A DNA stretch of 64,000 nt from Candidatus Palauibacter sp. (GTDB lineage: Bacteria; Gemmatimonadota; Gemmatimonadetes; Palauibacterales; Palauibacteraceae), in the NCBI RefSeq assembly GCF_965221685.1, contig NZ_OZ244907.1; one strand, given 5' to 3'. The notes beneath the pieces were generated by a model. That model made no database searches and was not told the DNA's origin. It worked only from the letters and a program-made list of their open reading frames with translations. The stretch's first letter is position 1, and each line of letters begins with the position of its first letter. Shown piece by piece: positions 15,035 through 32,294 of this stretch. The position numbers were made by a program, and so were the translations under genes.

Positions 15035-15048
15035 CCGCCCCCAGCAGC

Positions 15049-16880: not shown

Positions 16881-16890
16881 ACGGTACCGT
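16881..16890. promoter_or_regulatory. 10-bp perfect palindrome ACGGTACCGT in the divergent AGCS / glgP-like intergenic region
   Basis: Read in sequence. Position confirmed by codon arithmetic against an overlapping ORF-track entry. Confidence 0.3.
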
Positions 16891-16985
16891 AACTTCGTTC
16901 GCGCTCCGGCTCCGCCGGCGCCCCGCCGCACCCCAACCCCGGCCGTGACGAGCACCCCCGCGGAAGCAAGGAGACAAAGAGGAAC

Positions 16986-19184
16986 GTGGGTCCAGACAAC
17001 CGAATCCCCCACCGCATCGGGCGGCTGTGGGAACTCGCGAACGACCTCTCGTGGACGTGGAACCCGGAGGCCCCGGCCCTCTTCCGGGCCATCGATCCGC
17101 CGCTGTGGCGCCGCACGCGGCACAACCCCGTGGCGCTGTTGCGGACCGTCGGAGGCGAGCGCCTGCGCAGCCTGGCCGAGGATCCCGTCTTCCTCCGGAG
17201 ATACGACGCGGCGCTGGACGTCCGGCGTGACGCCGTGGTCGTCGGTCACGCGCCTGAAGCGGGGACAGCCGGGCACGCCGACAACATCCGGGCGGACGCC
17301 ACCCCGACCTGGTTCGACGAGCGCTATCCCGCGCTCCGCGACCTCCCGGTGGCGTACTTCTGCGCGGAATTCGCGTTGCACGAGTCCATCCCCATCTACT
17401 CCGGGGGACTCGGCGTGCTCGCGGGCGACCATCTCAAGGCGGCGTCGGAACTGGGGGTCCCCCTTGTCGGCGTCGGGCTGATGTACGCGCACGGCTACTT
17501 CGACCAGACGCTGGGGTCGGACGGCTGGCAGGAGGATGCGGACGACCCGCTCGACCCCGACCTGACCCCGCTGGAGCGGTTGCGGGGCGTGGACGGCGTC
17601 CCCTGGCTCGCTTCGATCCGCGGCGGGGGACGCCGCATCCATATCGGGGCGTGGAGGCTGCGCGTCGGGCGCGTCTCGCTGTACCTCCTCGACACGGATC
17701 TCGAGGAGAACGATCCCGCCGACCGGGGCCTCTCCCACCAACTCTACGCGGGCGGCGCGGATCACCGGCTGCGGCAGGAAGCGATCCTCGGCGTCGGCGG
17801 CGTGCGCGTGCTCGCTGCGCTCGGGATCGAGCCCGGGGCGTGGCACGCGAACGAGGGACACGCGGCGTTCATGATGGTGGAGCGCGTGCGCTGGCTGATG
17901 CGGGACGGCCGGTCCTTCGAGGACGCGGTGTCCCGGGTCCGGGCTTCGACCGTTTTCACGACGCATACGCCCGTATCTGCGGGTCACGACGTGTTCTCTC
18001 ACGCGCAGATGCGCGATTGGATCGGCGAGACGTTCTGGGAAGAGATCCCTCACCGCGAGGAGTTGCTGGCACTCGGTCTCCATCCGGACGACGAGGCGCA
18101 GGACCGGTTCCACATGACGGCGGCGGCGATCCGGCTGTCGCGACGCGTCAACGGCGTCTCCGCCAGGCACGGGCGCGTGACCCGGGAAATCTGGCGCGGC
18201 CTCTGGGGGGACCGTGCGGCCGGAGAGGTACCGATCCGGCACGTGACGAACGGGGTCCACCTCGCCACGTGGATGAGCGATGACATCGCCGGGCTTCTGG
18301 ACGAGTGGCTGCCCGCCGGGTGGCGATGCACGGGCGACGAAGCGATGTGGCGCGCGGTGCGCGACGTGCCGGCGCAGGCGCTGTGGCGCGTGCGGCGCCG
18401 GCTGAAGCTCCGGCTCCTCGACCTGATGCGCGACGAGGCCAGGCGCCGGTGGCCCGGCCATTGGCCGGAGTCGGCCCACCTCGCCGGAGCCGGCACGCTG
18501 ATGAGCCCCGAGCCGCTCACGATCGGATTCGCGCGGCGCTTCGCGACCTACAAGCGCGCGGACCTCATCTTCCGCGACCGTGAACGCCTGCTGGCGCTGC
18601 TCTCGGACCCCGCCCGCCCCGTGCAGTTGATCTTCGCCGGCAAGGCGCACCCGCGGGACGACGACGGCAAGCGCGTCCTCCAGCGCGTGTACGAGCATAC
18701 GCGCGATCCGGAGTTCGAGGGGAGAATCGCCTTTCTCGAGAACTACGGACTCCATGCGGCGCACGGTCTCGTCGAGGGCGTGGACCTGTGGCTCAACCTC
18801 CCCCGGGTCCCGCTGGAGGCGAGCGGGACGAGCGGGATGAAGGCCGCCCTCAACGGCGTCCCCCAGCTCGCGACCGCAGACGGCTGGTGGGAGGAGGGTT
18901 TCGAGGGCGACAACGGGTGGATCATCCCGCTCGCCCCCGCGACGGCGAGCGAGAAGGAGGTGGACGAGCACGACGCCGGACAGCTCTTCCGGCTCCTGGA
19001 GGAGGAGGTCATCCCCCTCTACTACGATCGGCCCGGCGCCGGGGCCGCGGACGACGCCCCGGCAAGCTGGCTCGCGCCCGCCCGGCGCGCGATCGAGGTG
19101 GCCGGCGCGCGATTCACGGCGGGCCGCATGGTGCGGGACTACGCGCGGGACTACTACGTCCCGTCGCTGCGCGGCGACGACTGA
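16986..19184 (+). CDS. glgP: Alpha-glucan phosphorylase (GT35, GlgP-like, DUF3417-type N-terminus)
   Basis: WTWNPEA ... YFCAEFALHESIPIYSGGLGVLAGDHLK ... pyridoxal-phosphate phosphorylase core. GTG start. Confidence 0.85.
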   Translation: MGPDNRIPHRIGRLWELANDLSWTWNPEAPALFRAIDPPLWRRTRHNPVALLRTVGGERLRSLAEDPVFLRRYDAALDVRRDAVVVGHAPEAGTAGHADNIRADATPTWFDERYPALRDLPVAYFCAEFALHESIPIYSGGLGVLAGDHLKAASELGVPLVGVGLMYAHGYFDQTLGSDGWQEDADDPLDPDLTPLERLRGVDGVPWLASIRGGGRRIHIGAWRLRVGRVSLYLLDTDLEENDPADRGLSHQLYAGGADHRLRQEAILGVGGVRVLAALGIEPGAWHANEGHAAFMMVERVRWLMRDGRSFEDAVSRVRASTVFTTHTPVSAGHDVFSHAQMRDWIGETFWEEIPHREELLALGLHPDDEAQDRFHMTAAAIRLSRRVNGVSARHGRVTREIWRGLWGDRAAGEVPIRHVTNGVHLATWMSDDIAGLLDEWLPAGWRCTGDEAMWRAVRDVPAQALWRVRRRLKLRLLDLMRDEARRRWPGHWPESAHLAGAGTLMSPEPLTIGFARRFATYKRADLIFRDRERLLALLSDPARPVQLIFAGKAHPRDDDGKRVLQRVYEHTRDPEFEGRIAFLENYGLHAAHGLVEGVDLWLNLPRVPLEASGTSGMKAALNGVPQLATADGWWEEGFEGDNGWIIPLAPATASEKEVDEHDAGQLFRLLEEEVIPLYYDRPGAGAADDAPASWLAPARRAIEVAGARFTAGRMVRDYARDYYVPSLRGDD

Positions 19185-19240
19185 TCGCGAAGCCCGGTGG
19201 CCGGCCCCCTCGATCCCAGCGGGGCTCTTGCCACGGGCCG

Positions 19241-19993
19241 CTAGGGGGGCGGAAGCAGCTCGTCGAGGTAGCGGAGGAGCATGTTGCGCCACGTGGGCCA
19301 GTCGTGGTGCCACTCCTCGCCCCAGTCGTCCATCCGGTTCGGCACGCCCTTTTGCCCCAGGAGCGAGGCCGCGCGCCAGGACTCGCCGATATCCTCCGCC
19401 CGCCCGCTCCCGGAGGCGAGGAGGACGAAACGCCGACGCAGCCGGTCGAGCGTCTCGCCCTCGAGTTGCGGCAGATGGTGCACGGGCGAGGCTCGGTAGA
19501 AGTCGCCCGTCGCTCTCGCCTCGACGCCGGCGTCGTCTTTCAAAAAGCGCTGGAGATCGTAGGTGCCGCTCATGCACACGGCATGCGAGAAGGCATCGGG
19601 GAACCGGCACAGCGCGGCGAGCGCGTTGAACGCTCCGATGGAGGAGCCTCCGACGATGACCTCGATCCCCGGATCGTTGCAGTCCTCCCGGATCATGGGG
19701 ACGAACTCGCGGTAGACGAACTCCTGAAACCGGTTCAGGACGGCCATGCGGTGTTCGGGGGTCCCCTCGCGTCCGAGCATGACGCGGCCCGCCACGCTGT
19801 CGCACGAATAGACCTTGATCCGGCCGGCCGTCAGGTAGTCCGCCACCGTGTCGATGACGAGAAAGCGCTCGATCTCCTCCGCATCTCCTCCGGCGGTGGG
19901 AAACATGAGGAAGGGCACGCCGACCTCGCCCCACCGCGCGACGTTGACCTCCTGTCCGAGACGATGCGACCACCAGCTGGCATTGAGTTTCAT
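19241..19993 (-). CDS. Esterase-family alpha/beta hydrolase (PF00756-like)
   Basis: GGSSIGAF nucleophile elbow and overall esterase-D/FrmB-like layout. ATG 19993 overlaps the stop of the upstream ATP-grasp gene (ATGA). The ORF-track N-terminal extension to 20488 is spurious. Confidence 0.6.
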   Translation of the reverse strand: MKLNASWWSHRLGQEVNVARWGEVGVPFLMFPTAGGDAEEIERFLVIDTVADYLTAGRIKVYSCDSVAGRVMLGREGTPEHRMAVLNRFQEFVYREFVPMIREDCNDPGIEVIVGGSSIGAFNALAALCRFPDAFSHAVCMSGTYDLQRFLKDDAGVEARATGDFYRASPVHHLPQLEGETLDRLRRRFVLLASGSGRAEDIGESWRAASLLGQKGVPNRMDDWGEEWHHDWPTWRNMLLRYLDELLPPP

Positions 19994-21267
19994 GAGGCGA
20001 GAATCGGCACGGCGCCGGGGGGTTCCTCCCGGCGGGCCGCCTGTATGCGGTCGAAGAAGAGGGCGGTGAACTCCTCGATCTCGTGATCGGGGTAGAGCGA
20101 GGCCACCTTCTTGCGCACCGCCTCGTGAGCCGCCTCGCTGCCGAAGAACTCGTCGGCCACCTCGTCCAGCTCCGGGAGGTGCGTCTCGCAGAACTCCACG
20201 AAGCGGTCGGTCTCGAACCTGGCCTCCGCGATCCCGGCGCAGGCTCGAACCCTCTCGCCGACCGACATCCCCGGACGGCAGGCATCGAGGAACGGCTGCC
20301 AATCGAGGTTGATGCGCATCCTGCGCCGGGTCGCCGCGCAGAAGAGGGACCAGCGGAGATTCGCCTTGATGAGCCACGGGAAGTGGTAGTGGAGCGAGGT
20401 GACCTGCGAATCCGGACAGGGGTTCGCGAAGTCGATCGGCATCCACCGTCCACCGCTGCGAAGCACCTCGCACGAGTTGAAGTCCCACCCGAAGAAGGCG
20501 TTGATCGTGAGCGTCGTGTCGCGGATCGCGCCGGCGTCCGTGGGCTCGAGGTGATCGCGCGCGACGGTGTAGCGGTCGTGCGCCGGGGCGCCGGGGTCGT
20601 AGAGCACGGCCCGCGTCTGGGGTCCCAGCCCGATGCAGCGGACGAAACGGTCGTGCTCCACCCCCTGCTGGAGGTGCATGACGAACTTGCCGCTCTCGTC
20701 GTAGGCGGCGCCGAGCGCCTCGTCGTCACCGATCCGCGACACGCCGCGCCAGCCACCGCCGTCGTAGGGCTTCATGAACACGGGATAGCCCAGGTTTCGC
20801 GCCACGGCGGGCAGGTCGAAGAGCCGCGCGTAGCGTTTCAGGGTGACCGCCAGATCGTCCTGCGGATCGTAGGACTTGGGCGGGATGAGCCACGTCCGCG
20901 GAACGGGGAGGCCCAGCCTCATCATCGCGCAGTAGGTGGAGTGCTTCTCCATCGACTGGACGCTCCACGGACTGTTGAACACGTAGAGCCCGTCCATGAT
21001 CACCGACTTCTTGATCCACTCCCGCGTCGGGAAAAACCAGTGCGTGAGGCGGTCGATGACGACGTCGTACTTCCCCTTCTGCTGCAGGTCGAAGGGCTCG
21101 ATCGTGACGTCCTCGATATGGAACCGGATCGTACCGTCGGACGAGGGGATCCGGGGGTTCATCCGTTCGAGGATCTCGCGGTAGGCGATGGGCCAGCAGA
21201 GGTCCGCCCCGAGCGAGAGGCCGATGCGGCGCGTGACCCCGCCCGCGGACGTCGACGGAGCCGTCAC
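19990..21267 (-). CDS. Divergent ATP-grasp-fold protein (ATP-grasp B)
   Basis: NSPW...KHSTYCAMMRLGLPVPRTWLIP ... YPVFMKPYDGGGWRGV ... resembles ATP-grasp B-loop and P-loop-like elements, but is unrelated in order to the three paralogs A/C/D. The family is not pinned down. GTG 21267 forms a GTGA overlap with the upstream esterase stop. Confidence 0.5.
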   Translation of the reverse strand: MTAPSTSAGGVTRRIGLSLGADLCWPIAYREILERMNPRIPSSDGTIRFHIEDVTIEPFDLQQKGKYDVVIDRLTHWFFPTREWIKKSVIMDGLYVFNSPWSVQSMEKHSTYCAMMRLGLPVPRTWLIPPKSYDPQDDLAVTLKRYARLFDLPAVARNLGYPVFMKPYDGGGWRGVSRIGDDEALGAAYDESGKFVMHLQQGVEHDRFVRCIGLGPQTRAVLYDPGAPAHDRYTVARDHLEPTDAGAIRDTTLTINAFFGWDFNSCEVLRSGGRWMPIDFANPCPDSQVTSLHYHFPWLIKANLRWSLFCAATRRRMRINLDWQPFLDACRPGMSVGERVRACAGIAEARFETDRFVEFCETHLPELDEVADEFFGSEAAHEAVRKKVASLYPDHEIEEFTALFFDRIQAARREEPPGAVPILAS

Positions 21268-22460
21268 TCGTAGACCATCCAGAGCGGGCCCGGGAAGAGC
21301 CACGACAGGCCCTCGCGCAGGCGGTCGCGCCAGTTCTCCCAGTTGTGGCCGTCGCGCGACTCGACGAAGCGCACGTCCGCGCCGCCGCGACGGAGAGCGT
21401 GTATCAGGGCTCGGTTCTCCGAGACCAGCGGTTCGTAGACGCCCACGGAGACGAACGCCTTCTCCGCGATGGCGGTCGGCTCGGCCCGGTACGCGTTCAT
21501 CATGTCGACGATGCGGTCGAAGACGGGGCCGCTCTCGTTGTCGCCGATATCCGTGAAGAGGAACGAGCCCGACTGGAGCAGGATACGGCCGAAGCGGCCG
21601 GGGTATTCGAGCGCGGCGTGGAAGGATGCGACGGCGCCCAGACTCGCGCCCATGAGGCCGCGCGACTCCGGATCCGGGAGCAGCGGATAGTCGCGTTCGA
21701 GACGCGGGAGCAACTCTTCGGCGACGAACCGGGCGTGCGCCGGATCGGCCGAGTATTCCGACATCCGATCGCCCGGGTGCAGAAGGGCGACGATCATCCG
21801 GGGGACCTCGAAGCGGTCGATCAGTCGGTCGAGCACGTGCTTCAGGCCGGCGTACTCGACGTAGTCCCCGCCGTCGTGCACGATCAGCAGCGGGTAGCGC
21901 CGGTTGGCGCGGAACTCCGCCGGACGGTACACCGTCACGTGACGGGCGGATTCGAGCGCCCTGCTCTCGACCGCGAGTTCGTCCATTTCGCCGGGCCGGA
22001 CCTCCTCGCTCTCACGGGCCCAGTCGGGGATCTCGTAGCCCCGTGCCTGCACGACCGAGTTCGCGCCGAACGGGTCGCGGGCGCGTTGGGGGTTCAGCGG
22101 ATCCTCGATCCATTCGGCGCGGCCGCGGGAGAGCACCTCGATCTTGTACTCCACCCGGGACTCGTCGGGGAGTTCGAGGGTGTAGCACCAGAGATCGGTT
22201 CCGTCCAGGCGGCGGAAGGGTGCCGAGGTCTGGAGTCCGTGCACCCAGTGTCGCAGGCGCACGGCGTCGGCGTGGCCCCGGTACACGAAGGTGTAGAGTG
22301 GCGGCTCGGCGAGGGGGAACTCGTTCGCATCGACGAACGCGTCGACCGCATCCGCCGCACCGAGACCCGAGACGAGCTGTTTCTCGAGCGCCGCGATCGC
22401 GGGCGAACGCGGCATCGACAGGTCGTACCCGTGTTCCCGGGCGCCGGCGTCGAATCGCAT
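21264..22460 (-). CDS. Esterase-family alpha/beta hydrolase with N-terminal E-set/CBM48-like beta-sandwich (enterochelin-esterase-like architecture)
   Basis: N-terminal domain: PLYTFVYRGHADAVRLRHWVHGLQTSAPFRRLDGTDLWCYTLELPDESRVEYKIEV, the pattern of CBM48/AMPK-beta-GBD and the Fes N-domain. C-terminal domain: LLIVHDGGDY ... GASLGAVASF nucleophile elbow ... DGHNWENW. Confidence 0.6.
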   Translation of the reverse strand: MRFDAGAREHGYDLSMPRSPAIAALEKQLVSGLGAADAVDAFVDANEFPLAEPPLYTFVYRGHADAVRLRHWVHGLQTSAPFRRLDGTDLWCYTLELPDESRVEYKIEVLSRGRAEWIEDPLNPQRARDPFGANSVVQARGYEIPDWARESEEVRPGEMDELAVESRALESARHVTVYRPAEFRANRRYPLLIVHDGGDYVEYAGLKHVLDRLIDRFEVPRMIVALLHPGDRMSEYSADPAHARFVAEELLPRLERDYPLLPDPESRGLMGASLGAVASFHAALEYPGRFGRILLQSGSFLFTDIGDNESGPVFDRIVDMMNAYRAEPTAIAEKAFVSVGVYEPLVSENRALIHALRRGGADVRFVESRDGHNWENWRDRLREGLSWLFPGPLWMVYE

Positions 22461-22468: not shown

Positions 22469-23464
22469 CTACGCCGCCGCGCGGAAGAGGACCCGGCGGC
22501 CCGTCAGATCGAGGCGCTCGACGCCGTCCACGCCGCTCCAGCCGTCGCCGGCCCGGTCGATGCGGCGGCCCGGGTCGAGGAGGACGCAGGAGGCCGGGGC
22601 GAAGCGGGCTGCGAGCCGTGCCCCCCGCGTCCGGTCGTCCAGCGCCAGGCGGGCCGAGGCGTGGGGAAGCGCGACGATCCCCTGGGCGATCCCGAGTCCC
22701 GCATCGAACACCTCGGGGTTCCCCTCCCCCCAGGGTGGCCGATCGTGAAAGAGGACGATGCGCTCCGTCAGCGCCATCGCGCCCGCCGAGCGGGCGATCA
22801 CGGTGCGCCCTTCGAGGAGTTCCCGTCCGCCGAAGAGGCGAAGCCGGCTGAGCAGATTCGAGACGTGCCCGCCCTCGACGACGACCAACTCGACCCCCTC
22901 GAGGCGCGCGTCCACCTCCCGTCGCTGCGACCGCACGGCATCGCGCTCATCCGGCGCCATGCGCTCTTCGAACTCCGAGCGAAGCTCGACCACGCGGTCC
23001 AGATGGCGGGCATCGAGGCAGCGAATCGCTTCGAGAGCCTCCTCCCGCTCGGCGGCGAGCACCGTCTCGTCTCCCCGCAGCCCGGTCAACTGCCGATGGG
23101 CGTCGATGAGACCGTGGAGCCGCAGGTTGTAGGCGCGGCGCAGCGCCCTGAGCCGGTTCCGGCTCTCCAGGTGCGCACGCGCGAGTTCCGCGTCCGCCTC
23201 GGCGATCCGGTCGGAGCGCCGATAGAGTTCGAGATCCACGACGCGATCCGCCAGGCGGGGATGGATGAGTCCTTCGTTCGCCTCCCGGTCCCGCCATCCG
23301 GCGGTGATGGCCGCGATCCGCGCGCCCGGCGACAGCGCGCCTCCGGCCTCCAGTTCCCGCACCACGTCGATGAGCGCAAGGTCGCCCCCTCGCGGACCCA
23401 GGAGGACGAGCCGGGACGGGGACCCGGCGTTGTCATTGACCCGACGCCTTCTCGACACCCTCAT
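22469..23464 (-). CDS. Peptidase S51-family (cyanophycinase / peptidase E family) serine hydrolase with N-terminal coiled-coil-like extension
   Basis: C-terminal class-I-glutamine-amidotransferase-like fold with VIARSAGAMAL (GxSAG serine motif of S51) and downstream His/Glu-containing blocks. The N-terminal ~150 aa are Arg/Glu/Ala-rich heptad-like. ATG 23464 forms an ATGA overlap with the upstream ATP-grasp stop. Confidence 0.55.
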   Translation of the reverse strand: MRVSRRRRVNDNAGSPSRLVLLGPRGGDLALIDVVRELEAGGALSPGARIAAITAGWRDREANEGLIHPRLADRVVDLELYRRSDRIAEADAELARAHLESRNRLRALRRAYNLRLHGLIDAHRQLTGLRGDETVLAAEREEALEAIRCLDARHLDRVVELRSEFEERMAPDERDAVRSQRREVDARLEGVELVVVEGGHVSNLLSRLRLFGGRELLEGRTVIARSAGAMALTERIVLFHDRPPWGEGNPEVFDAGLGIAQGIVALPHASARLALDDRTRGARLAARFAPASCVLLDPGRRIDRAGDGWSGVDGVERLDLTGRRVLFRAAA

Positions 23465-24684
23465 GCGGCGCGCACTCTCACCCAGCGTCCGACCGCGTCG
23501 AGCATTTCGCGCAGTTCGTCGTAGTCCGGGTGCCGCAGACGTAGCCAGGCGTTCGCCATGTATCCGGCCTCCACCGGCTGGGTGGGCGTACCGGGCGGCG
23601 GCAGGTGCGTGTCGATGATCCACTCCCCGAAGCGGGCTTCCACCTCGTCCAGACCCTCATACCCCGCGATCCGCCCATCGTTTTCGGGCCGCAGCGTCAC
23701 GATCCCCGCGGAGTACCGGCGCGACGCGTCCCGCAGTTTCCGGCCATGCACGATGCAGGCCGCCCACTCGCGGTACACATCCAGTTCGTTCGCCGCGCCG
23801 TAGAGGTCCCAGGCCCGGACGCCGGGCGGACGGCAACCGATCTCGGAGAATCTGAGTCCCTTCTCTCCGAAGAACCATTCCATGTGGGTGGCGGAGGTCC
23901 CGATCTCGAGCGCATCGATGACCCGCTGCCCCAGGTCCCGGACCTCCGCGTAGGCGTGAGCGGCGTCGATCCGGTTCGTGGCGATGAACTGGGGCGACAC
24001 CTCCCGCGTCCGCATCGCCTCGAGCACGTTCGGGTAGTAGTGGGTCATGAAATCGTGGACGATCACGCCGTCCACCGTCAGCGTGTCGTAGAAGGCCTCG
24101 TGTCCGTCCACGAACTCCTCGACGGCGACTTCGGCGCCATGCCCGACGCCGAGGCGCGGGAGCAGAGCCACAAGCTGCGCCTCATCGTCGACGCGATACG
24201 TGCCCGAGGCGCCCGCCCCGGCGCGAGGCTTGATGATGAGCGGATAACCGATCCTCCGGCCGAAACCGGCGATCTCCTCGGCGTCGCCTCCCCCCATGGA
24301 TTGAGCGGTCGCGATCCCCGCAGCGCGAAGGGCGTCCTTCATTGCCGGCTTGTCGCGGCACAGGTGCGCGGTCCTCACCGAGGTCCCGGCCAGTCCGGCG
24401 GCTTCCCGCACGCGGGCGACCGGAAGGATGTGGGCTTCCACCGTGGCCTCGAGGCGATCCACGGGTTGCCGCCGGTGGATCTCGTGAAGGGCGTGCGCGA
24501 GCGCGCCCTCGTCGCACACGGAGCCGACCTGCTCGTAGCAGGTGAGCCACCGGTGCAGATCCGGGCCGAGCGCCTCCACCGGGGCTTCGCCCACCGCCGA
24601 CACGTCCGCGCCGATCTCGTGCAGACCGCGCACGAAGTCCTTCTGGTTTCCGGGAAACAGGGGTTCAACGAATACGACGTGCAT
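23461..24684 (-). CDS. ATP-grasp ligase, L-amino-acid-ligase-like (paralog A)
   Basis: 407 aa from ATG 24684, homologous position to paralogs C and D. Motifs CRDKPAMKDALRAAGI, GYPLIIKP, VAVEEFVDGHE, THMEWF, EIGCRPPG. These resemble BacD/YwfE-type Lal (ARDKNKMRDAF ... THTE ... ESAARFAGW). Confidence 0.7.
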   Translation of the reverse strand: MHVVFVEPLFPGNQKDFVRGLHEIGADVSAVGEAPVEALGPDLHRWLTCYEQVGSVCDEGALAHALHEIHRRQPVDRLEATVEAHILPVARVREAAGLAGTSVRTAHLCRDKPAMKDALRAAGIATAQSMGGGDAEEIAGFGRRIGYPLIIKPRAGAGASGTYRVDDEAQLVALLPRLGVGHGAEVAVEEFVDGHEAFYDTLTVDGVIVHDFMTHYYPNVLEAMRTREVSPQFIATNRIDAAHAYAEVRDLGQRVIDALEIGTSATHMEWFFGEKGLRFSEIGCRPPGVRAWDLYGAANELDVYREWAACIVHGRKLRDASRRYSAGIVTLRPENDGRIAGYEGLDEVEARFGEWIIDTHLPPPGTPTQPVEAGYMANAWLRLRHPDYDELREMLDAVGRWVRVRAA

Positions 24685-24808
24685 TGCTTCGCCAACGACT
24701 CGTGGGAAAAACTTCACTTTGAGGGCCCGACATAGTACAGTCCCTGCTCTCAAACGCCAGCCCGTCCGGCGGCGGCCGTCCGGCCCGCCGCGGGAACCCG
24801 GAAGATCC
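24685..24808. promoter_or_regulatory. Shared 124-bp divergent promoter region between ATP-grasp paralogs A (minus) and C (plus), with an AT-rich core GGGAAAAACTTCACTTTGAGGG
   Basis: The only intergenic space inside the cluster larger than 20 bp. No ORF with a start and stop fits. The frame contiguous with C has no ATG. Confidence 0.4.
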
Positions 24809-26032
24809 ATGCTCAACGTCGCCTTCGTCGCCCCGTTCTATCTCCCTACCACGCTGCGCTTTCTGGAGGCCGCCGCGGGGCTCGCCGACGTGCGCCTCGG
24901 GGTCGTGACGCAGGAACCGCTCGAACGAACGCCGGCCGCCCTCCGGCAGCGGATCGCGGCGCACGTCCGGGTCGAGGACGCGCTGTCGGCGGAGGGCATC
25001 CACGTCGGGCTGCGCCGGCTCTCTGCCGACCTCGGCGGGATCGACCGTCTGCTGGGCGCGCTGGAGGAGCTTCAGGTACCGCTCGGGGAGCTGCGTGACG
25101 CCCTGGGGTTCGCCGGGATGGGTGGGGCCGCCGCGCGCAATTTCCGCGACAAGTCCCTGATGAAGGACGTGCTCCGGGCACACGGCCTGCCCTGTGCCCG
25201 CCACGCGCTGGTCCGCGATGAGGACGAGGCAACGGCCTTCTCGGATGCGACGGGCTTCCCCCTCATCGTGAAGCCGCCGGCCGGTTCCGGCGCCCGCGGC
25301 ACCTTCCGCGTCGAAACGTCGGCGCAGTTGCGCACGGCGATCGCGATGTCGCGGCCGAGCGGCGAGCGGCCGACGCTCGTCGAGGAGTTCGTCGTGGGCG
25401 AGGAACACTCCTTCGACGCGGTCTCGATCGGCGGGCGCCTCGTCTGGCATTCGATCAACCACTACCTGCCTTCCCCGCTCGAGGTGCTGCGCGAGCCGTG
25501 GATCCAGTGGTGCGTCCTCCTCCCGCGGGAGGTCGATTCGCCCCGGTACGAGGAGATCCGGCGCGTTGCCGGACCCGCGCTCGATGCGCTCGGGATGGAG
25601 ACGGGGTTGAGCCACATGGAGTGGTTCCGGCGGCCCGACGGTTCGGTGGCGATCTCCGAAGTCGGGGCCCGCCCCCCTGGAGCCCAGTTCGTCACACTGA
25701 TCTCGCAGGCGCACGACTTCGACCTCTACCGTGCCTGGGCCCACCTCCTGGTCTTCGACGAGTTCGATCCCCCGCCGCGCCCCTATGCGGCCGGCGCGGC
25801 CTATCTCCGGGGACAGGGGCGGGGCCCCGTGCGACGGGTGGCCGGCATCGAGGAGATCGCGAACGACCTCGGGCCGCTCTGCGTCGAGTGGCGCCTCCCT
25901 CGGGCGGGACAGGCGCAGAGCGCGTCGTACGAGGGAGAGGGCTACATCATCGTCCGCCATCCGCGCACCGAGGTCGTCGAGGAGGCGCTGGGGCGGATCA
26001 TCACCCGCGTACGGGTGGAACTCGCCAAGTAA
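24809..26032 (+). CDS. ATP-grasp ligase, L-amino-acid-ligase-like (paralog C)
   Basis: 407 aa from ATG 24809. FRDKSLMKDVLRAHGLP, GFPLIVKPPAGSGARG, LVEEFVVGEEHS, SHMEWF, EVGARPPG. Confidence 0.7.
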   Translation: MLNVAFVAPFYLPTTLRFLEAAAGLADVRLGVVTQEPLERTPAALRQRIAAHVRVEDALSAEGIHVGLRRLSADLGGIDRLLGALEELQVPLGELRDALGFAGMGGAAARNFRDKSLMKDVLRAHGLPCARHALVRDEDEATAFSDATGFPLIVKPPAGSGARGTFRVETSAQLRTAIAMSRPSGERPTLVEEFVVGEEHSFDAVSIGGRLVWHSINHYLPSPLEVLREPWIQWCVLLPREVDSPRYEEIRRVAGPALDALGMETGLSHMEWFRRPDGSVAISEVGARPPGAQFVTLISQAHDFDLYRAWAHLLVFDEFDPPPRPYAAGAAYLRGQGRGPVRRVAGIEEIANDLGPLCVEWRLPRAGQAQSASYEGEGYIIVRHPRTEVVEEALGRIITRVRVELAK

Positions 26033-26052
26033 CGAAACCATTCAACGGAACC

Positions 26053-27270
26053 ATGAACGTACTGATGATTTCGCCGGGTTACCCGGCCGAGATGACGTAT
26101 TTCACACGGGGGCTCGCGGAGGTGGGCGCGAACGTCATCGGCCTGGGCGATCAGCCCGGGTCGGCGCTGCCCGAGGTCGCCCGGACGAGCGTTTCCACGC
26201 ACCTGCAGGTGAGGTCGCTGGCGGATGAGGCGGACGTGATGCGGCAGGTCGCCGCGCTCGCCGAGAGCACCCGCATCGACCGCGTGGAGTGTCTCTGGGA
26301 GCCCTTCATGATCCTCGCGGCGCGGCTGCGGGAGATGCTGGAGCTGCCCGGGCCGACCGTCGCGCAGACGCTCCCCTTCCGCGACAAGGAAGTGATGAAG
26401 GACGTCCTCGACAGCGCGGGGATCCGGACGCCCCGCCACGGGAGGGCCACGAGCAGCGCCGAGTGCCGCGAGGTTGCGGAGCACGTCGGCTTCCCGCTCA
26501 TCGTGAAGCCCGTCGACGGGGCCGGCTCGGCCGACACGCACCGGGTCGATTCGGCGCGGGAGCTGGAGCGGATCCTTCCGGCTCTCCGGCACGTTCCGCA
26601 GGTCACGGTGGAGGAGTTCATCGAGGGCGAGGACATGACCTTCGACACGGTCACGGTCGGGGGTGTCGTCGCGCACTACAACATCTGCCGCTACTGGCCC
26701 CGTGCGCTCGAGTCGAAGACGCACGAGTGGCTCAGCCCCATCACCTATGCGCTGCGCGACGTGGAGGCGGATGATGTCGCCGCCGGACGCGAGATGGGGT
26801 TCGCCGTGCTCGCCGCGCTCGGATTCGAGACCGGCTACACGCACATGGAGTGGTACCGGACGGCGGACGGGGAGGCCGTGTTCGGCGAAATCGCCGCGAG
26901 GCCCCCCGGCGTGCGGACGGTCGACCTCATCAACTTTGCGAGCGACATCGACACCTATCGCGGGTGGGCCGAGGGCGTCGTGCACGCGAAGTGGTCGCAG
27001 CCGGTGGAACGGAAGTACAACGCCTGCTGGATCGTCAAGCGGGCGCGCGGGCAGGGCCGGATCCAGCGCATCGAGGGGCTCGGCCCCCTGCTGCAGGAGT
27101 ACGGCGAGCGTGTGTGCAGCCTCGATCTGCTCCCGGTCGGGTCGCCACGGCGGAACTGGCAGGCCACGCTCGTCTCCGACGGGATGATCTTCCTCCGGCA
27201 CCCCGACCTCGGGGCGCTGGAGACGATCGCCGGCGAGTTCGCGACGCGGCTGCAACTCTACGCGGCCTGA
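26053..27270 (+). CDS. ATP-grasp ligase, L-amino-acid-ligase-like (paralog D)
   Basis: 405 aa from ATG 26053, 20 bp after C. FRDKEVMKDVLDSAGIRTP, GFPLIVKPVDGAGS, TVEEFIEGED, THMEWY, EIAARPPG. Confidence 0.7.
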   Translation: MNVLMISPGYPAEMTYFTRGLAEVGANVIGLGDQPGSALPEVARTSVSTHLQVRSLADEADVMRQVAALAESTRIDRVECLWEPFMILAARLREMLELPGPTVAQTLPFRDKEVMKDVLDSAGIRTPRHGRATSSAECREVAEHVGFPLIVKPVDGAGSADTHRVDSARELERILPALRHVPQVTVEEFIEGEDMTFDTVTVGGVVAHYNICRYWPRALESKTHEWLSPITYALRDVEADDVAAGREMGFAVLAALGFETGYTHMEWYRTADGEAVFGEIAARPPGVRTVDLINFASDIDTYRGWAEGVVHAKWSQPVERKYNACWIVKRARGQGRIQRIEGLGPLLQEYGERVCSLDLLPVGSPRRNWQATLVSDGMIFLRHPDLGALETIAGEFATRLQLYAA

Positions 27271-29279
27271 CCCCCCTTGCCCGACTCTTCCGAGCGCGTG
27301 AGCACGAGAAAACCCAGCGGCGGGAGATCGAGCGCGAGCGAGGCGGGGCGTCCGTGGCGGGAGACCTCCTCCGCGCAAGCCGGAGACGCGGTGCGTCCGC
27401 TCCCCCCGAAATCCGGGTCGCCGCTGTCCAGCAGGACGCGGTACGGCCCGGCTTCGGGCAGGGCGACCCGATACCGCGGCCATGCGGTCGCGGAGAAGTT
27501 CGCGACGACGACGACCGCTCCCTCCCACTCCGGCCGCCAACGCACGTAGCTCAGTACGCTGTGCGACGCGTCGTGCACGTCCAGCCACTCGAACCCTTCC
27601 GGCCTGTGGTCGAAGGCGTGCAGCGCCGGTTCGCTCGCGTAGAGACGGTTCAGCGCGCGCACCCAGCGCCGGAGCCCGCGGTGCGCCCGGTGCGTCGGGT
27701 TCGCTGACGCATCCGGAAGACCCCAGTCCAGCTCACCATCCTCGTCCCATTCCCGCCGCTCCCCGATCTCCCCTCCCATGAAGAGCAGCTTGGCGCCGGG
27801 GTGCGTCCACATGTAGCCGAGGAGGAGGCGGAGGCCGGCGAACTTCTCGTCGTCCGTCCCCGGCATCTTTTCAACGAGAGAACACTTGAGGTGAACAACT
27901 TCATCATGCGACAAGGGAAGTAGATACCGTTCCGAATGCGCATAGTGAAGCGAGAACGTCAGGTGGCGGTGCAGGCGCGGCCGCCGCTTCGGTGGCGCGG
28001 CGAGGACCCGGAGCGTGTCGTTCATCCATCCCATGTTCCACTTGAAGTCGAACCCGAGCCCTCCCTCGTCCACCGGCGCCGTCACCCCCGGCCACGCGCT
28101 GCTCTCCTCCGCGAACAGGAGAACGCCCGGAAGGTCGCGGTGGACCATCTCCGAGAGTCCTTTCAGGAAGGCGATCGCGCCGAGGTTCTCCCGTCCCCCG
28201 AGTTCGTTCGGCTCCCACTCTCCCTCATCCCGTGAATAGTCGAGGTGGAGCATCGACGCCACCGCATCGACGCGCAGGCCGTCCACGTGGTAGTGCTCGA
28301 TCCAGTAGCGCGCGCTCGAGAGGAGGAAGGAGACGACCTCGGGGCGGTTGAAATCGAAGGCGAGCGTGCCCCAGTCCGGATGAACGGCCCGCGATTCTTC
28401 TCCCATCTCGTAGAGGGGAGCGCCGTCGAACGTGCGCAGGCCGTGGAGGTCGGGGCCGAAGTGGCCGGGCACCCAGTCGAGCACGACGCCCAGCCCCAGG
28501 CGGTGGGCCTCGTCCACGAAATGTGCGAAGTCCTCCGGCGGTCCGTAGCGGGAGGTGGGGGCGAAGTACCCGACGGTCTGATATCCCCAACTCCCGTCAT
28601 ACGGATGTTCCATGACGGGGAGGAGTTCGATGTGCGTGAAACCCAGGTCGGCCACGTAGGGCAGCAGCTCCCGGGCGAGCGCGCGGTACCCCAGCCACGA
28701 GCCGTCGGCGTTCCGGCGCCAGGAACCGGGGTGGACCTCGTAGATGGAGACGGGGACTCCGGGAGTCGCGCGTTCCGGCCGGGTCTCGACCCACGCCGCA
28801 TCCGTCCAGCCGTGGGGGGCGGTCGACACGACTCGCGACGCGGTGCCCGGCCTGACTTCGGCGGCGCGCCCGAGCGGATCGGCCTTGTCGACCGCAAGGG
28901 GGAGCCCGCCCGGGGCGCCGTCCGTCCCGGAGCGCACCCGGAACTTGTACAGCTCTCCGGGTCCGACGCCGGGGACGAAGCGCTCCCACACGCCGGCATC
29001 TCCCACCTGAGACATGGGATGCGCCTCCCCCTCCCACTCGTTGAACGAGCCCACGACGCTGACCCAATGGGCGCGCGGGGCCCACACGGCGAACCGCGTA
29101 CCCGACTCCCCACCGCGCTCGCACGGGTGCGCACCGAGGAGATCATGCAGCGCCGACTCCCGTCCCGCGTGGAACGCCTCGAAGTCGGACGCCTTCAGAG
29201 GGAACGAAGGATCGCGTGCCGGGGTTTGGAGAGGTCCGGGCGGGCCGCTAGATTTTTCCTGTTCGATCTGCCACCTCAT
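27258..29279 (-). CDS. glgB: 1,4-alpha-glucan branching enzyme GlgB (GH13)
   Basis: N-terminal CBM48 (RFAVWAPRAHWVSVVGSFNEWEG ... LYKFRV) and GH13 catalytic blocks (GFTHIELLPV, VVLDWVPGHF, GLRVDAV, LFAEESSAWPGVT, FSLHYAHSE). Start at ATG 29279 (MRWQIEQ...) by alignment with GlgB N-termini. Confidence 0.9.
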   Translation of the reverse strand: MRWQIEQEKSSGPPGPLQTPARDPSFPLKASDFEAFHAGRESALHDLLGAHPCERGGESGTRFAVWAPRAHWVSVVGSFNEWEGEAHPMSQVGDAGVWERFVPGVGPGELYKFRVRSGTDGAPGGLPLAVDKADPLGRAAEVRPGTASRVVSTAPHGWTDAAWVETRPERATPGVPVSIYEVHPGSWRRNADGSWLGYRALARELLPYVADLGFTHIELLPVMEHPYDGSWGYQTVGYFAPTSRYGPPEDFAHFVDEAHRLGLGVVLDWVPGHFGPDLHGLRTFDGAPLYEMGEESRAVHPDWGTLAFDFNRPEVVSFLLSSARYWIEHYHVDGLRVDAVASMLHLDYSRDEGEWEPNELGGRENLGAIAFLKGLSEMVHRDLPGVLLFAEESSAWPGVTAPVDEGGLGFDFKWNMGWMNDTLRVLAAPPKRRPRLHRHLTFSLHYAHSERYLLPLSHDEVVHLKCSLVEKMPGTDDEKFAGLRLLLGYMWTHPGAKLLFMGGEIGERREWDEDGELDWGLPDASANPTHRAHRGLRRWVRALNRLYASEPALHAFDHRPEGFEWLDVHDASHSVLSYVRWRPEWEGAVVVVANFSATAWPRYRVALPEAGPYRVLLDSGDPDFGGSGRTASPACAEEVSRHGRPASLALDLPPLGFLVLTRSEESGKGGQAA

Positions 29280-29290
29280 CGCGGCGCGTC

Positions 29291-29305
29291 CGTCCGGACC
29301 GGACG
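29291..29305. promoter_or_regulatory. Inverted repeat CGTCCGG-A-CCGGACG in the 67-bp divergent glgB / glgA intergenic region
   Basis: Perfect 7-bp arms with a 1-nt spacer. Confidence 0.3.
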
Positions 29306-29346
29306 CCGTCCCTTGCAGCCACACATTCGCCACTTCGCGACGAAGT

Positions 29347-30867
29347 ATGAGCCGCATGCCCGCAATCGCCAAGCCAGCGCCGACACGACCGGCGGCGGGG
29401 GTCAAGCCCCCGGAGGAGCTTGCCGTCGTGCATCTCGTCGCGGAGTACTGGCCGTACGCCCGCACCGGCGGTCTCGCGGAGGCGGTGCGCGGCATCGCCA
29501 CCTTCCAGGCGGCCCAGGGGACCCCCGTCACGGTGTTCATGCCGCTCTACCGGTCGGTGCGCGAGGCTTTCCCCGACCTGGAGCCGATCACGGACAGCTT
29601 CCGCGTGCGCGTGGGGCGTCTGGTCGAGGAAGTCCGGATTCTCCAGCATCCCGGCCCGCGCCGGAACCCGCGCGTGCTCTTCGTCGATCATCCCGGGTGC
29701 TTCGACCGGGACGGGATCTACGGGGAGGGCGGGGCGGACTACACGGACAATCCGCTGCGCTTCGCGCTCTACAACCTCGCGGCGCTCCAGATTCTGCCGG
29801 AACTCGCCAACGTGCCCGTCGTCGTGCACGCGCACGACTGGCATGCGGCCCTCGCCCCCGTCTTCCTGCGCACGCGGTTCGCGGGACGCGAGGCGCACGA
29901 CCGCATGGCGGCCGTCCTCTCCATTCACAACGCCGGCTACCAGGGACTTCAGGGACCCGGCGTGCTCGGAGAGATCGGGCTTCCGCGCGAACTGTTCCAC
30001 TGGCGGCTCATGGAGTTCCACGGCCACCTGAACCTCCTCAAGGGGGGGCTCGTGTTCGCCGACTACGCGACGACCGTGAGTCCCACGCACGCACACGAGC
30101 TTCGCACGGCCACCGGCGGCTTCGGTCTTCACGGCTCTTTCATCGAGATGGGCGACCGCTTCCTCGGAATCCTGAACGGAGTCGATCTGGAAGTCTGGGA
30201 CCCCGAGACGGACGAGGAGATCGCCGCAACATTCTCGAGCGCGGAGCTGGCCGGGAAAGCGGTGTGCAAGCGGGCGCTGCAGCGGGAATACTCCCTGGCC
30301 GAGGCGCCACGCGAACCGTTGTACGGGATGACCGCGCGACTCGTCGGGCAGAAGGGGCTCGACCTCCTCATCGACGGCGGGCCGCTGGAGCGGGCCGAAG
30401 GGCAGTTCATCTTCCTCGGCCAGGGCGAGGAGCGGTACGAGACGGCGCTGCGCGAGTTGGCCGGACGGTATCCCGACCGGATCGCCGTGGACACCGGGTT
30501 CACCGAACCCAAGGAGCACCGGCTCCTGGCGGGAATCGACCTCCTCCTGATGCCGTCGCTCTACGAACCGTGCGGTCTCACGCAGATGCGGGCGCAGCTT
30601 TACGGCGTCCTCCCGGTCGCCCGGCGCGTCGGGGGGCTGGCCGACACCATCGAAGACCAGGTCACGGGCTTCCTGTTCGACGGATACACGTCGGAGGATC
30701 TCGAGGTCGCGCTCGGGCGGGCCGCCACGCTCTATGCGGGGGGGCCGGAGGCGTGGAACGAGCACGTGGTCCAGGCGATGACCCGCGACTTCGGCTGGGC
30801 GAGCAGCGCGGACCGCTATCTGGACGTTTACCGGCGGGCGCTCGCCGCGCACGCCCCGGGCGACTGA
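29347..30867 (+). CDS. glgA: Glycogen synthase GlgA (GT5)
   Basis: VVHLVAEYWPYARTGGLAEAV (KTGGL motif), HAHDWH, and C-terminal GT-B blocks (PLYGMTARLVGQKGLDL ... EPCGLTQMRAQLYG). ATG 29347. Confidence 0.85.
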   Translation: MSRMPAIAKPAPTRPAAGVKPPEELAVVHLVAEYWPYARTGGLAEAVRGIATFQAAQGTPVTVFMPLYRSVREAFPDLEPITDSFRVRVGRLVEEVRILQHPGPRRNPRVLFVDHPGCFDRDGIYGEGGADYTDNPLRFALYNLAALQILPELANVPVVVHAHDWHAALAPVFLRTRFAGREAHDRMAAVLSIHNAGYQGLQGPGVLGEIGLPRELFHWRLMEFHGHLNLLKGGLVFADYATTVSPTHAHELRTATGGFGLHGSFIEMGDRFLGILNGVDLEVWDPETDEEIAATFSSAELAGKAVCKRALQREYSLAEAPREPLYGMTARLVGQKGLDLLIDGGPLERAEGQFIFLGQGEERYETALRELAGRYPDRIAVDTGFTEPKEHRLLAGIDLLLMPSLYEPCGLTQMRAQLYGVLPVARRVGGLADTIEDQVTGFLFDGYTSEDLEVALGRAATLYAGGPEAWNEHVVQAMTRDFGWASSADRYLDVYRRALAAHAPGD

Positions 30868-30881
30868 ACCCCTCCTCGACC

Positions 30882-32294
30882 GTGGGTCGCGCCACGGTTG
30901 TCCTCCACGGCCATTTCTACCAGCCGCCGCGGGAGGACCCGTGGACGGACCGGGTCCGTCGCGAGCCGAGTGCGGCTCCGTTCGAGAACTGGAACGAACG
31001 AATCGCGTCGGAATGCTACGAACCTCTGGCGCGGGCGGGGGCGTTCGACTGGCTGAGCTTCGACCTCGGCCCGACGCTCGCGCGCTGGCTCGAGGGGGAG
31101 CACCCCGACATCCACGAGCGCTTCGTCGGCGGGGACCGGGCGAGCCGCGATCGGCTGGGGCACGGCAACGCGGTCGCGCAGCCTTACCACCACATCATCC
31201 TTCCGCTCGCCTCCCGCCACGAGAAGGAAACGGAGGTGCGCTGGGGTCTCCGGGACTTCGAGCGGCGCTTCGGGCGGTGCGCCGAGGGCATGTGGCTCCC
31301 GGAGACGGCCGTCGACATGGCCACGCTCGAAGTGCTGGCGGCGGAGGGCGTGGCCTTCACGATCCTGGCCCCGCACCAGGTCGCGGACGCCCCGGACGGA
31401 GGCATCGGGCGGGTCCGCCTCGGTGAGGGCCGGGAGATCGCGGTCTTCATCTACGACGGCGAGCTCTCGCACGGCGTGGCGTTCGGGGCTCTGCTCGACG
31501 GCCGCGACGCGTGGTTCGAGGCGCTGCGGTCGGCCGCGGGCCGCGGGGTTCCCCTCGTGGCGCTGGCGACGGATGGCGAGACGTTCGGACACCACCACGG
31601 GGGCGCTGACCGCGCGCTAATGCAGGTGATCTCCCGCGCCCGCCGGAGCGGAGACGTGAAGATCGGGAACTTCGCCTCGGCGCTCGCGGCCGCGGGCGAA
31701 GTGCCGTTCGTGACTCTGAAGGAGCCCACTTCCTGGAGCTGCGCACATGGCGTGGAGCGCTGGCGCTCGGCGTGCGGGTGCCGGATGGCGCCTCACCTGG
31801 ATTCACAGCAGCACTGGCGGAGGCCGCTTCGCGAGGCGTTCGAGACGCTCGCCGCGAGCCTGGACGAGGCTTTCGCGATCCTCGCGCCGGGCCGGTTGTC
31901 GGAGCCCCGGCAGGCGCTGGCCGCCCTGGGAGGCGCCCTCGGCGACCCTGCGGGGCTGGAGGGTTTTGCGGCCCGGGTCGCCCGCGAAGGCCGCCGGGAC
32001 GACGTGTTGTCCCTCCTCGAACTCGCCCGCGACCGGGCGGCGATGTTCACCTCATGCGCCTGGTTCTTTGACGATGTGGCGGGGATCGAGGCCACGCAGG
32101 TGCTCGCCTACGCCGCGCACGCCATCGACCGCCTGCGTCGGCTCTCACCGGAGCGCGCGGAGGCATCGGAGGCCGCCTTCATCGCGGATCTCGCGAAGGC
32201 CCCGGCCAATGACGCCGATCTCGCGAACGCCGCGGTCGCGTACGAGCGCGCGTTCAGATCGGGGGCCGGCGTCCGCATCCCGGCGGACGCGTGA
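30882..32294 (+). CDS. GH57-related protein (DUF3536-type)
   Basis: N-terminus VVLHGHFYQPPREDPW and GH57-like catalytic region (MWLPETAV ... ATDGETFGHHH). GTG 30882 start; no ATG nearby. Confidence 0.6.
   Translation: MGRATVVLHGHFYQPPREDPWTDRVRREPSAAPFENWNERIASECYEPLARAGAFDWLSFDLGPTLARWLEGEHPDIHERFVGGDRASRDRLGHGNAVAQPYHHIILPLASRHEKETEVRWGLRDFERRFGRCAEGMWLPETAVDMATLEVLAAEGVAFTILAPHQVADAPDGGIGRVRLGEGREIAVFIYDGELSHGVAFGALLDGRDAWFEALRSAAGRGVPLVALATDGETFGHHHGGADRALMQVISRARRSGDVKIGNFASALAAAGEVPFVTLKEPTSWSCAHGVERWRSACGCRMAPHLDSQQHWRRPLREAFETLAASLDEAFAILAPGRLSEPRQALAALGGALGDPAGLEGFAARVAREGRRDDVLSLLELARDRAAMFTSCAWFFDDVAGIEATQVLAYAAHAIDRLRRLSPERAEASEAAFIADLAKAPANDADLANAAVAYERAFRSGAGVRIPADA

Follow-up and report, generated by a model that had tools for sequence, protein, structure and literature searches.

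The closest described relatives of the genes considered here are the L-amino-acid ligases of the ATP-grasp type, for which there is a precedent of joint action, the cooperating ligases PnaB and PnaC building tripeptides (PMC11867202); one of their likely partners at this locus resembles enzymes of the S51 family, whose characterised members cleave aspartyl peptide or amide bonds (PMC9239234). The locus lies in a stretch of 64,000 nucleotides (the window; contig NZ_OZ244907.1, assembly GCF_965221685.1) with a G+C content of about 70%, from Candidatus Palauibacter, a marine Gemmatimonadota lineage (PMC10469786). It contains three L-amino-acid-ligase-like ATP-grasp genes, which we call A, C and D, within a module of seven genes arranged as two operons: A, an S51-like gene, the esterase gene Est2, a fourth and divergent ATP-grasp gene (G4) and the esterase gene Est1 on the minus strand, facing C and D on the plus strand. 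We favor, with a probability of roughly 0.6, the reading that this module makes and turns over an amino-acid-derived oligomer or conjugate without the ribosome, and that A, C and D are the anciently diverged ligase core of a two-operon module found across phyla. The reading draws on homology, intact catalytic residues, synteny, translational coupling, gene fusions and purifying selection, from which we infer possible substrates, an order of steps, the nature of the product and its role.

A, C and D are true full-length paralogues. In BLASTP comparisons they align end to end, A with C at 31% amino acid identity (E 7e-50), A with D at 35% (E 5e-74), and C with D at 31% (E 9e-58), and the window holds no further copy, apart from a 34-residue and very weak match to G4 (19990-21267). 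The coordinates, strands, lengths and start peptides given for the three genes in a first-pass annotation of the same DNA are all correct on re-reading of the open reading frames (ORFs), as are the gaps of 124 bp between the divergent A and C and of 20 bp between the tandem C and D, a layout that is conserved across loci; the five motif blocks quoted there are present in all three proteins, in the same order and in register in the alignment.

The first-pass annotation had also described the triplication as recent-looking, and here the comparison with other genomes points the other way. A scan of one genome per species returned at least 589 stretches encoding a relative, and the best 80 loci, to which the locus counts below refer, were analysed; they come from Gemmatimonadota, Acidobacteriota, Actinomycetota (including cultured Pseudonocardia and Actinoplanes), Planctomycetota, Eisenbacteria, Chloroflexota and Gammaproteobacteria. 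Database homologues of D number more than 6,600, the best 120 of them at 62–93% identity. When the loci are searched with the window proteins (tblastn), separate orthologues of A, C and D are recovered per locus, those of A in 61 loci (59–98% identity) and those of C in 70 (51–97%), with orthologues in other phyla being 52–69% identical. Among 212 sequences from the three groups, pairwise identity inside a group is 56–98% for A, 45–96% for C and 48–98% for D, and does not overlap with that between groups, which is 25–41%; each group is monophyletic in all of 100 neighbor-joining (NJ) bootstraps, and a sister grouping of A with D is weakly favored (63/100 NJ bootstraps). At the DNA level the three genes match one another only in patches at motif sites of no more than 67 bp (72–79% identity), and the distance between paralogues at nonsynonymous sites (dN) is 0.70–0.81, that at synonymous sites (dS) being saturated. 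A recent origin is thus refuted, because orthologues of each copy in many phyla are far closer to it than its neighbours in the window; strictly, the copies are not even each other's closest relatives, with orthologues at up to 98% identity against 31–35% between neighbours, and recent tandem gene amplification is rejected on the same grounds. These sequence relationships place the three-way split before the module spread through several phyla, a spread that may have been by descent or by ancient transfer of the module as a unit.

The three groups nevertheless belong together. Hidden Markov models (HMMs) built from each orthologue group score the other two paralogues at 245–330 bits, whereas the score falls to 142–188 bits for the nearest outgroup ATP-grasps and to 89 bits for the best solved structure, and by this measure A, C and D form one ATP-grasp subfamily. 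Conservation of at least 90%, with the same residue in each of the three groups, is seen in 42 alignment columns, and these are not confined to generic ATP-grasp residues, since several, for example D302, W307, R322, R332 and G337 (A numbering), lie outside the generic motifs. It had been proposed that the C-terminal 100 or so residues are the most divergent part, and they are indeed less similar between paralogues (27–29% identity) than the core (32–41%), but the first 100 residues diverge just as much or more (24–30%); within each orthologue group the C-terminus is conserved as well as the remainder of the protein. With dS saturated, dN/dS between the three copies is uninformative, and it was computed among orthologues instead: values are 0.10 for A and 0.10–0.12 for C, the range for A, C and D together is 0.09–0.12, and that for the other five genes is 0.12–0.25. 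All of the module genes are under strong purifying selection. A plasmid collection contained no orthologues of A, C or D, yielding only distant ATP-grasps at 26–32% identity, two of which were used as outgroups.

These results bear directly on the proposal that came with the idea of a recent triplication, namely that the three copies act successively to give up to a tetrapeptide, with new specificities residing in the C-terminal 100 or so residues. Three intact L-amino-acid-ligase-like enzymes do lie at one locus, and sequential or convergent ATP-grasp pathways with two ligases exist (PMC11867202). The age of the split and a C-terminus that is not uniquely divergent speak against it, and it leaves out the fourth ATP-grasp and the three hydrolases; we therefore consider the proposal as a whole unlikely, while stepwise assembly by A, C and D up to a tetrapeptide is by analogy plausible as only part of the picture.

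The description of A, C and D as L-amino-acid-ligase-like is a fair one. All three match the Pfam ATP-grasp family PF02222 (37, 47 and 29 bits respectively, cut-off 27), and D also matches ATPgrasp_N (PF18130, 34 bits). Searched as a single sequence, gene A finds RizA (4wd3) as its top PDB match (E 2.8e-17) and gene D finds BL00235 (3vot, E 1.4e-11), the latter improving to 2e-24 with a profile; the top six PDB matches of the D profile are all L-amino-acid ligases (E 2e-24 to 2.5e-12), with PurD and Ddl lower. When solved structures are ranked, BL00235 (3vot, 89 bits), RizA (4wd3, 85 bits), BacD and 30vh outrank PurD, Ddl, carbamoyl-phosphate synthetase and cyanophycin synthetase, so that the solved structures nearest to A, C and D are all those of L-amino-acid ligases. 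At the same time A, C and D fail every curated NCBIfam equivalog model by a wide margin, and for this reason the likeness is justified as a label whereas membership of a characterised family is not.

The residues typical of ATP-grasp enzymes, an ATP-binding lysine, a Gly-rich loop, the hinge EE, two acidic Mg2+ ligands and a catalytic arginine, are all retained: conservation reaches at least 90% in each of the three groups at K152, G158, E189/E190, E269, E281, R285 and G288 (A numbering). The 42 shared columns thus include the ATP-binding lysine, the hinge EE, the HxE motif (H-M-E-W) and the E...R..G motif, along with several C-terminal positions. We take the conserved lysine, glutamate and arginine residues to serve in ATP and Mg2+ binding and in catalysis by the acyl-phosphate mechanism of ATP-grasp enzymes, and with these retained in A, C and D none of the three looks like a pseudo-enzyme. 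This is relevant to the possibility that A, C and D are subunits of one hetero-oligomeric enzyme performing a single reaction, with one or two of them structural or regulatory: strict co-occurrence of the three, the tight spacing of C and D and their similar, low rates of evolution would suit such an arrangement, but ATP-binding and catalytic residues kept in all three groups would be unexpected for pseudo-enzyme subunits, and several genomes have C and D with no A nearby. We regard a single hetero-oligomer as very unlikely.

The organisation of the module (Table 1) gives an indication that its genes function jointly. On the minus strand A overlaps the S51-like gene at ATGA, Est2 overlaps G4 at GTGA and G4 overlaps Est1 at ATGA, and a gap of 8 nt separates the S51-like gene from Est2. 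The order Est1-(G4)-Est2-S51-A, facing C-D, is kept in about 40 of the 80 loci and in at least five phyla; C is directly followed by D in 69 (median gap 12 nt), and A and C are divergent neighbours in 47 (median 101 nt). Natural fusions of the S51-like protein to Est2 occur in four separate 50%-identity clusters (P0405, P0464, P0471 and P0501), and a fusion of G4 to Est1 in P0274 (68% identity to Est1). The overlaps, the fusions and the conserved order together indicate that the module genes work together.

Table 1. Features of the ligase module, its glycogen-gene neighbours and the outgroup cassettes (positions are those of the window unless a locus is named)
Feature	Position	Strand	Description	Supporting match or context
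glgP-like alpha-glucan phosphorylase	16986-19184	+	Pfam Phosphorylase and DUF3417	Convergent with Est1; syntenic in Gemmatimonadota loci
Est1	19241-19993	-	250 aa; small alpha/beta serine hydrolase, PF00756/CE1-like	PF00756, E 8e-7
G4	19990-21267	-	About 425 aa; highly divergent fourth ATP-grasp with C-terminal helical domain	GTG start
Est2	21264-22460	-	398 aa; Fes/CE1-type serine esterase with Fes-like N-terminal domain	PF00756, E 6e-25
S51-like protein	22469-23464	-	331 aa; S51 (peptidase E/cyanophycinase) fold with helical-hairpin insert of about 100 residues	
Gene A	23461-24684	-	407 aa; L-amino-acid-ligase-like ATP-grasp, first in minus-strand operon	ORF, start peptide MHVVFVEP
Divergent intergenic region	24685-24808		124 bp	Block 24712-24743 (CTTCACTTTGAGGGCCCGACATAGTACAGTCC) conserved
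Gene C	24809-26032	+	407 aa; L-amino-acid-ligase-like ATP-grasp	ORF, start peptide MLNVAFVAP
Gene D	26053-27270	+	405 aa; L-amino-acid-ligase-like ATP-grasp with ATPgrasp_N	ORF, start peptide MNVLMISPG
Glycogen branching enzyme glgB	27258-29201 (start approximate)	-	Pfam CBM_48, Alpha-amylase and Alpha-amylase_C	Converges on D
GT5 glycogen synthase glgA	29350-30867 (start approximate)	+	Glyco_transf_5	E 8e-61
Outgroup cassette, Peptoclostridium acidaminophilum plasmid	L082:6001-7966			Est1-like gene 3' of ATP-grasp
Outgroup cassette, Pararhizobium qamdonense plasmid	L083:6001-7929			Est1-like gene 3' of ATP-grasp

The spacer between A and C contains a 32-bp block (24712-24743) that is kept in 10 Gemmatimonadota loci with variable flanks and that occurs only once in the window. 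Judging from its sequence, this block is likely to be the promoter of C-D (TTCACT-17 nt-TACAGT); a strict sigma-70 scan of the spacer region returned nothing, there are no convincing terminators, and neither the spacer nor the rest of the module has an Rfam match to an RNA or riboswitch element. Where A and C are separated by inserted genes, as in L017, L036, L049 and L071, the inserts are unrelated and variable. Two arrangements of C and D deserve mention: in a Pyrinomonadaceae locus (L057:6502-8582) two MvdD-type (graspetide) ATP-grasp genes lie directly upstream of C-D, with no A, S51 or esterase gene nearby, and a Thermoanaerobaculia locus (L059:7549-11215) has an additional D-like copy (55% identity) upstream of the C-D pair, so that one strand reads D'-C-D, in place of the usual A facing C-D.

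The association of ligase and hydrolase genes extends outside the module itself. In the two outgroup cassettes an ATP-grasp that is related to A, C and D (142–188 bits with their HMMs) is accompanied by an Est1-like hydrolase of about 250 residues (27–29% identity, E 1e-32), and this presence of Est1-like genes after outgroup ATP-grasps suggests that the ligase-hydrolase pairing is older than the module. There are also accessory genes: an M20 metallopeptidase gene lies directly 3' of D in 13 loci, mostly Actinomycetota (for example, L021:11136-12551), and a gene of the GCS2 type (Glu-Cys-ligase family 2) with two CBS domains is found near the module in seven loci from four phyla (for example, L013:990-2960). 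These raise the possibility of a pathway to a gamma-glutamyl peptide or low-molecular-weight thiol, resembling that of glutathione, in which the GCS2 protein and the ATP-grasps would be the ligases, the PF00756 proteins thioesterases and the M20 protein a dipeptidase of the Cys-Gly type. S-formylglutathione hydrolase (esterase D) belongs to PF00756, as do Est1 and Est2, and it is among the weak PDB matches of Est2. But the GCS2 and M20 genes are accessory, being missing from most loci, the window among them, the closest relatives of Est2 are Fes and feruloyl esterases and not esterase D, and no cysteine-related genes are present, so that there is very little to recommend a thiol product.

The Pfam match of the S51-like protein to PF03575 is weak (22.3 bits, cut-off 23.9, E 1e-4), but the AlphaFold2 (AF2) model, with a predicted local distance difference test score (pLDDT) of 91 and a long helical hairpin insert, confirms the S51 fold of this neighbour at the level of a predicted structure: all of the top 18 PDB matches in Foldseek are S51 enzymes, each with a probability of 1.00, and they include cyanophycinase, pseudo-CphB and peptidase E. 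The putative nucleophile Ser218, in an SAG motif, is invariant in an alignment from 23 loci and at least 90% conserved in one of 36 sequences, and an FHD motif that is nearly invariant may be an alternative to the canonical histidine.

Est1 and Est2 are, as far as sequence can tell, catalytically intact serine esterases, with Ser133 (GxSxG), Asp237 and His245 of Est1 and Ser273, Asp370 and His372 of Est2 invariant. Est2 has a weak Enterochelin_N match, and in profile searches of the PDB it matches Fes (2b20, E 2.5e-20) and feruloyl esterases; with the curated Fes model it scores 121 bits (cut-off 222). We considered whether its N-terminal domain could be a CBM48 and rejected this: there is no Pfam CBM_48 match, hhalign against the CBM48 of the window GlgB gives a probability of 0.4%, and PDB proteins that combine CBM48 with CE1 align with Est2 over the catalytic domain only. 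G4 has no Pfam match, although its profile matches Ddl in the PDB (E 1e-5), and Foldseek with its AF2 model (pLDDT 82) returns ArgX/LysX, Ddl and RimK; scores with TIGR00768 and TIGR02144 are 22–25 bits (cut-offs 143 and 276), only the fold being similar. More than 6,000 homologues of G4 can be found, mostly unnamed or called 'hypothetical protein', with a few called 'ATP-grasp domain-containing protein'.

The module lies among genes of glycogen metabolism. In the window it is flanked by glgP-like, glgB and glgA genes, and also by two GH57 genes; the 3' ends of D and of the convergent glgB share 13 nt (27258-27270), and no terminator-like structure was detected between the two genes. Elsewhere a GT5 glgA lies between A and C in Acidobacteriota, Planctomycetota and one gammaproteobacterium, glgB adjoins or follows D in several other phyla, and in L081 there is an operon glgA-A-S51-Est2-G4-Est1 in which glgA abuts A and is translationally coupled to it. 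A glg gene is present within 10 kb of the module in 15 of 19 loci in Gemmatimonadota, 6 of 15 in Acidobacteriota, 2 of 7 in Planctomycetota and 6 of 8 in other groups, the Actinomycetota being considered below.

Two alternatives give this context a central place. In one, the ligases would esterify the hydroxyl groups of glycogen with amino acids or short peptides, and the CE1-type esterases would remove or transfer these groups. ATP-grasp enzymes can form esters, as does the D-Ala-D-lactate ligase; the position of glgA (between A and C) or of glgB (after D) in several phyla and the coupling of glgA to A in L081 accord with such a role, as do two hydrolases that are both CE1 or Fes-like esterases with intact triads. 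Its difficulties are that the N-domain of Est2 matches Fes-N, weakly, and lacks similarity to CBM48, that the glycogen link nearly vanishes in Actinomycetota, that free amino acids are what is ligated by the enzymes of solved structure nearest to A, C and D, and that the S51 and M20 partners suggest peptide bonds; decoration of a glucan therefore seems to us a doubtful explanation, quite unlikely to hold. We judge in a similar way the possibility of a nitrogen reserve resembling cyanophycin, in which the ATP-grasp ligases alone would make a poly- or oligo-aspartyl polymer and the S51-like enzyme would degrade it, encoded beside the carbon reserve, glycogen. RimK is a polymerising peptide ligase, G4 resembles RimK and LysX, and the module adjoins storage-polymer genes; the structural matches of the S51-like protein to cyanophycinase, pseudo-CphB and peptidase E are in keeping with it, and characterised S51 enzymes act on aspartyl linkages (PMC9239234). 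Set against this, the module has no Mur-ligase-like domain of the kind found in CphA, matches of A, C and D to cyanophycin synthetase models (such as TIGR02068) are generic, at 26–44 bits compared with cut-offs of 850–877 and covering the ATP-grasp core only, the S51 histidine is not conserved, and two esterases would have no role in cyanophycin metabolism.

The breadth of the module's distribution also bears on the view that it is a secondary-metabolite cluster for a di- or tripeptide antibiotic of the bacilysin, rhizocticin or phosphonoalamide type. The closest characterised enzymes, BacD and RizA, come from such clusters, and S51 peptidases can be self-resistance enzymes (PMC9239234). However, identities of 52–69% across phyla, hundreds of species and a fixed gene order are atypical of antibiotic clusters, as is a position embedded among glycogen genes, and genes for warhead biosynthesis, export or resistance are not a recurrent feature of the flanks of the loci; on distribution and context we reject an antibiotic product as extremely improbable.

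We therefore return to synthesis and turnover of an amino-acid-derived oligomer or conjugate, for which the following scheme can be put forward. A, C and D would each convert the carboxylate of an amino acid or short peptide into an acyl phosphate, couple it to an amine and, each having its own specificity, would together produce a short amino-acid oligomer without the ribosome. G4, with its RimK/LysX-like fold, would add to or extend the peptide carboxylate, and the S51-type protein and the two serine esterases would trim, release or recycle the product, joined in the 13 loci with M20 genes, mostly from Actinomycetota, by a dipeptidase. By analogy, the aspartyl specificity of characterised S51 enzymes hints at bonds that contain aspartate, and the esterase families at ester or thioester bonds. 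The module would be co-expressed with the glycogen synthesis genes, and co-expression suggests that the product may be a metabolite serving as a reserve or in stress, formed under the conditions in which glycogen is.

Several observations weigh against this scheme. The likeness to characterised L-amino-acid ligases is low, with, for example, a score of 30 bits for NF053745 (alanine--anticapsin ligase, BacD) and a cut-off of 850. The canonical histidine of the S51-like protein is present in the window but is replaced across phyla (H, D, S or N), and some S51 clades lack peptidase activity (PMC9239234). The other hydrolases of the module are in esterase and not peptidase families, and the product may thus contain ester or thioester bonds and not amides alone. 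Ligases and hydrolases that are co-transcribed are a poor fit to a simple cycle in which a storage compound is first made and later broken down. C and D occur in some genomes with no A nearby, and D is alone in two (L025 and L075), where its neighbours give no consistent hint. Finally, the glycogen link is nearly absent in Actinomycetota, with a glg gene within 10 kb in only 2 of 31 loci, and the link itself lacks a mechanistic explanation.

A more specific and far more speculative proposal, to which we would give a low probability, is that the product is a widespread and hitherto unrecognised amino-acid polymer or conjugate, coupled metabolically or physically to glycogen, either a cyanophycin-like reserve made by ATP-grasp enzymes only or an alpha-glucan with aminoacyl or peptidyl esters that are removed by the CE1-type esterases. 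If so, hundreds of species in at least five phyla would make a bacterial storage or stress material of a new class. The module is in any event common, being present in at least about 590 species-level genomes with proteins that are some 50–65% identical across phyla, and its annotation is only 'ATP-grasp domain-containing protein' or 'hypothetical protein'. Once identified, the product could turn out to be a new peptide-based reserve, osmolyte or glucan modification of bacteria that are abundant in soil and in the sea (Gemmatimonadota, Acidobacteriota, Planctomycetota and Actinomycetota), and A, C and D could be of use in enzymatic peptide synthesis as a set of three L-amino-acid ligases already diversified in nature. 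Full-text searches of the literature found no description of the module, and an earlier prediction in the amidoligase-neighbourhood survey of Iyer et al. (2009) is possible; glycogen, ATP-grasp and cyanophycin go unmentioned in the Palauibacterales genome paper.

Some other features of the window can be noted. A gene of the sodium:alanine symporter family (PF01235, E 1e-133) lies at 15049-16740 on the minus strand, just upstream of glgP at the edge of the glycogen and ATP-grasp region. A SAM-II riboswitch (SAM_alpha, RF00521, 48.8 bits) is found at 5857-5930 on the minus strand, directly upstream of an ORF for B12-dependent methionine synthase (2054-5908, minus strand); the Rfam label of RF00521 is Alpha-proteobacteria SAM riboswitch, and the genome here is that of a member of the Gemmatimonadota. 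The window is rich in peptidase genes (10530-13097, 34270-35664, 45221-47347, 48662-50863 and 59395-61218), comprising two S9 prolyl-oligopeptidase-type genes with beta-propellers, one S9/DLH-like, one M1 and one M24. Very long ORFs of 1,345–1,446 aa at 12785-17125 and 16719-20756 on the minus strand and at 28245-32294 on the plus strand lie across real genes that are in a different frame or on the opposite strand, and are artefacts of the 70% G+C content, not genes.

A comparison with known systems shows which parts of the module are familiar and in what it departs from them. Fes and the CE1 feruloyl esterases are the best solved relatives of Est2 and Est1, which keep the Ser-Asp-His triad and, in Est2, a Fes-like N-domain; unlike Fes, they have no siderophore genes nearby, and they appear to be cytoplasmic proteins, fused or coupled to S51 and ATP-grasp partners. 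Glutathionylspermidine synthetase/amidase is a bifunctional ligase and hydrolase acting on one metabolite, with an amidase of the CHAP fold. It offers a parallel to the ligase-hydrolase coupling seen in the G4-Est1 and S51-Est2 fusions, by analogy only, the hydrolase folds (CHAP and alpha/beta esterase) being unrelated. RimK, LysX and ArgX have the folds closest to that of G4, which keeps the KP...GGG motif and the D-x-N Mg2+ motif; G4 differs from them in its sequence, with only 14–19% identity, in having no Pfam family and in an extra C-terminal helical domain of about 120 residues, and, unlike in those systems, no gene for a LysW-like carrier or an S6-like target is seen in the module. CphA and CphB likewise combine an ATP-grasp ligase with an S51-fold hydrolase in a context of storage metabolism. 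However, CphA is a protein of about 900 residues in which the ATP-grasp is joined to a Mur-ligase-like domain, whereas the module has neither a Mur-ligase domain nor a multi-domain CphA; in comparison with CphB, the S51-like protein has the helical insert of about 100 residues and the non-conserved histidine, and it is accompanied by two esterases.

The nearest relatives of the ligase core remain BacD/YwfE, RizA and BL00235, which share their fold and domain order with A, C and D and are their best solved sequence matches. A, C and D nevertheless reach only 57–89 bits with them in profile searches and stand apart as a subfamily of their own with three fixed paralogues, in a conserved multi-phylum module and not in a lineage-specific antibiotic cluster. 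PnaB/PnaC of the phosphonoalamides and RizA/RizB of rhizocticin are similar in that several ligases are encoded at one locus, and they divide between them the labour of making a tripeptide (PMC11867202). Those clusters are narrow in range and include a warhead pathway, whereas here three ligases and G4 are combined with three hydrolases and glycogen genes and there are no warhead genes. The novel aspect of the module would thus be peptide synthesis of the L-amino-acid-ligase type in a widely conserved, glycogen-linked arrangement of four ligases and three hydrolases.

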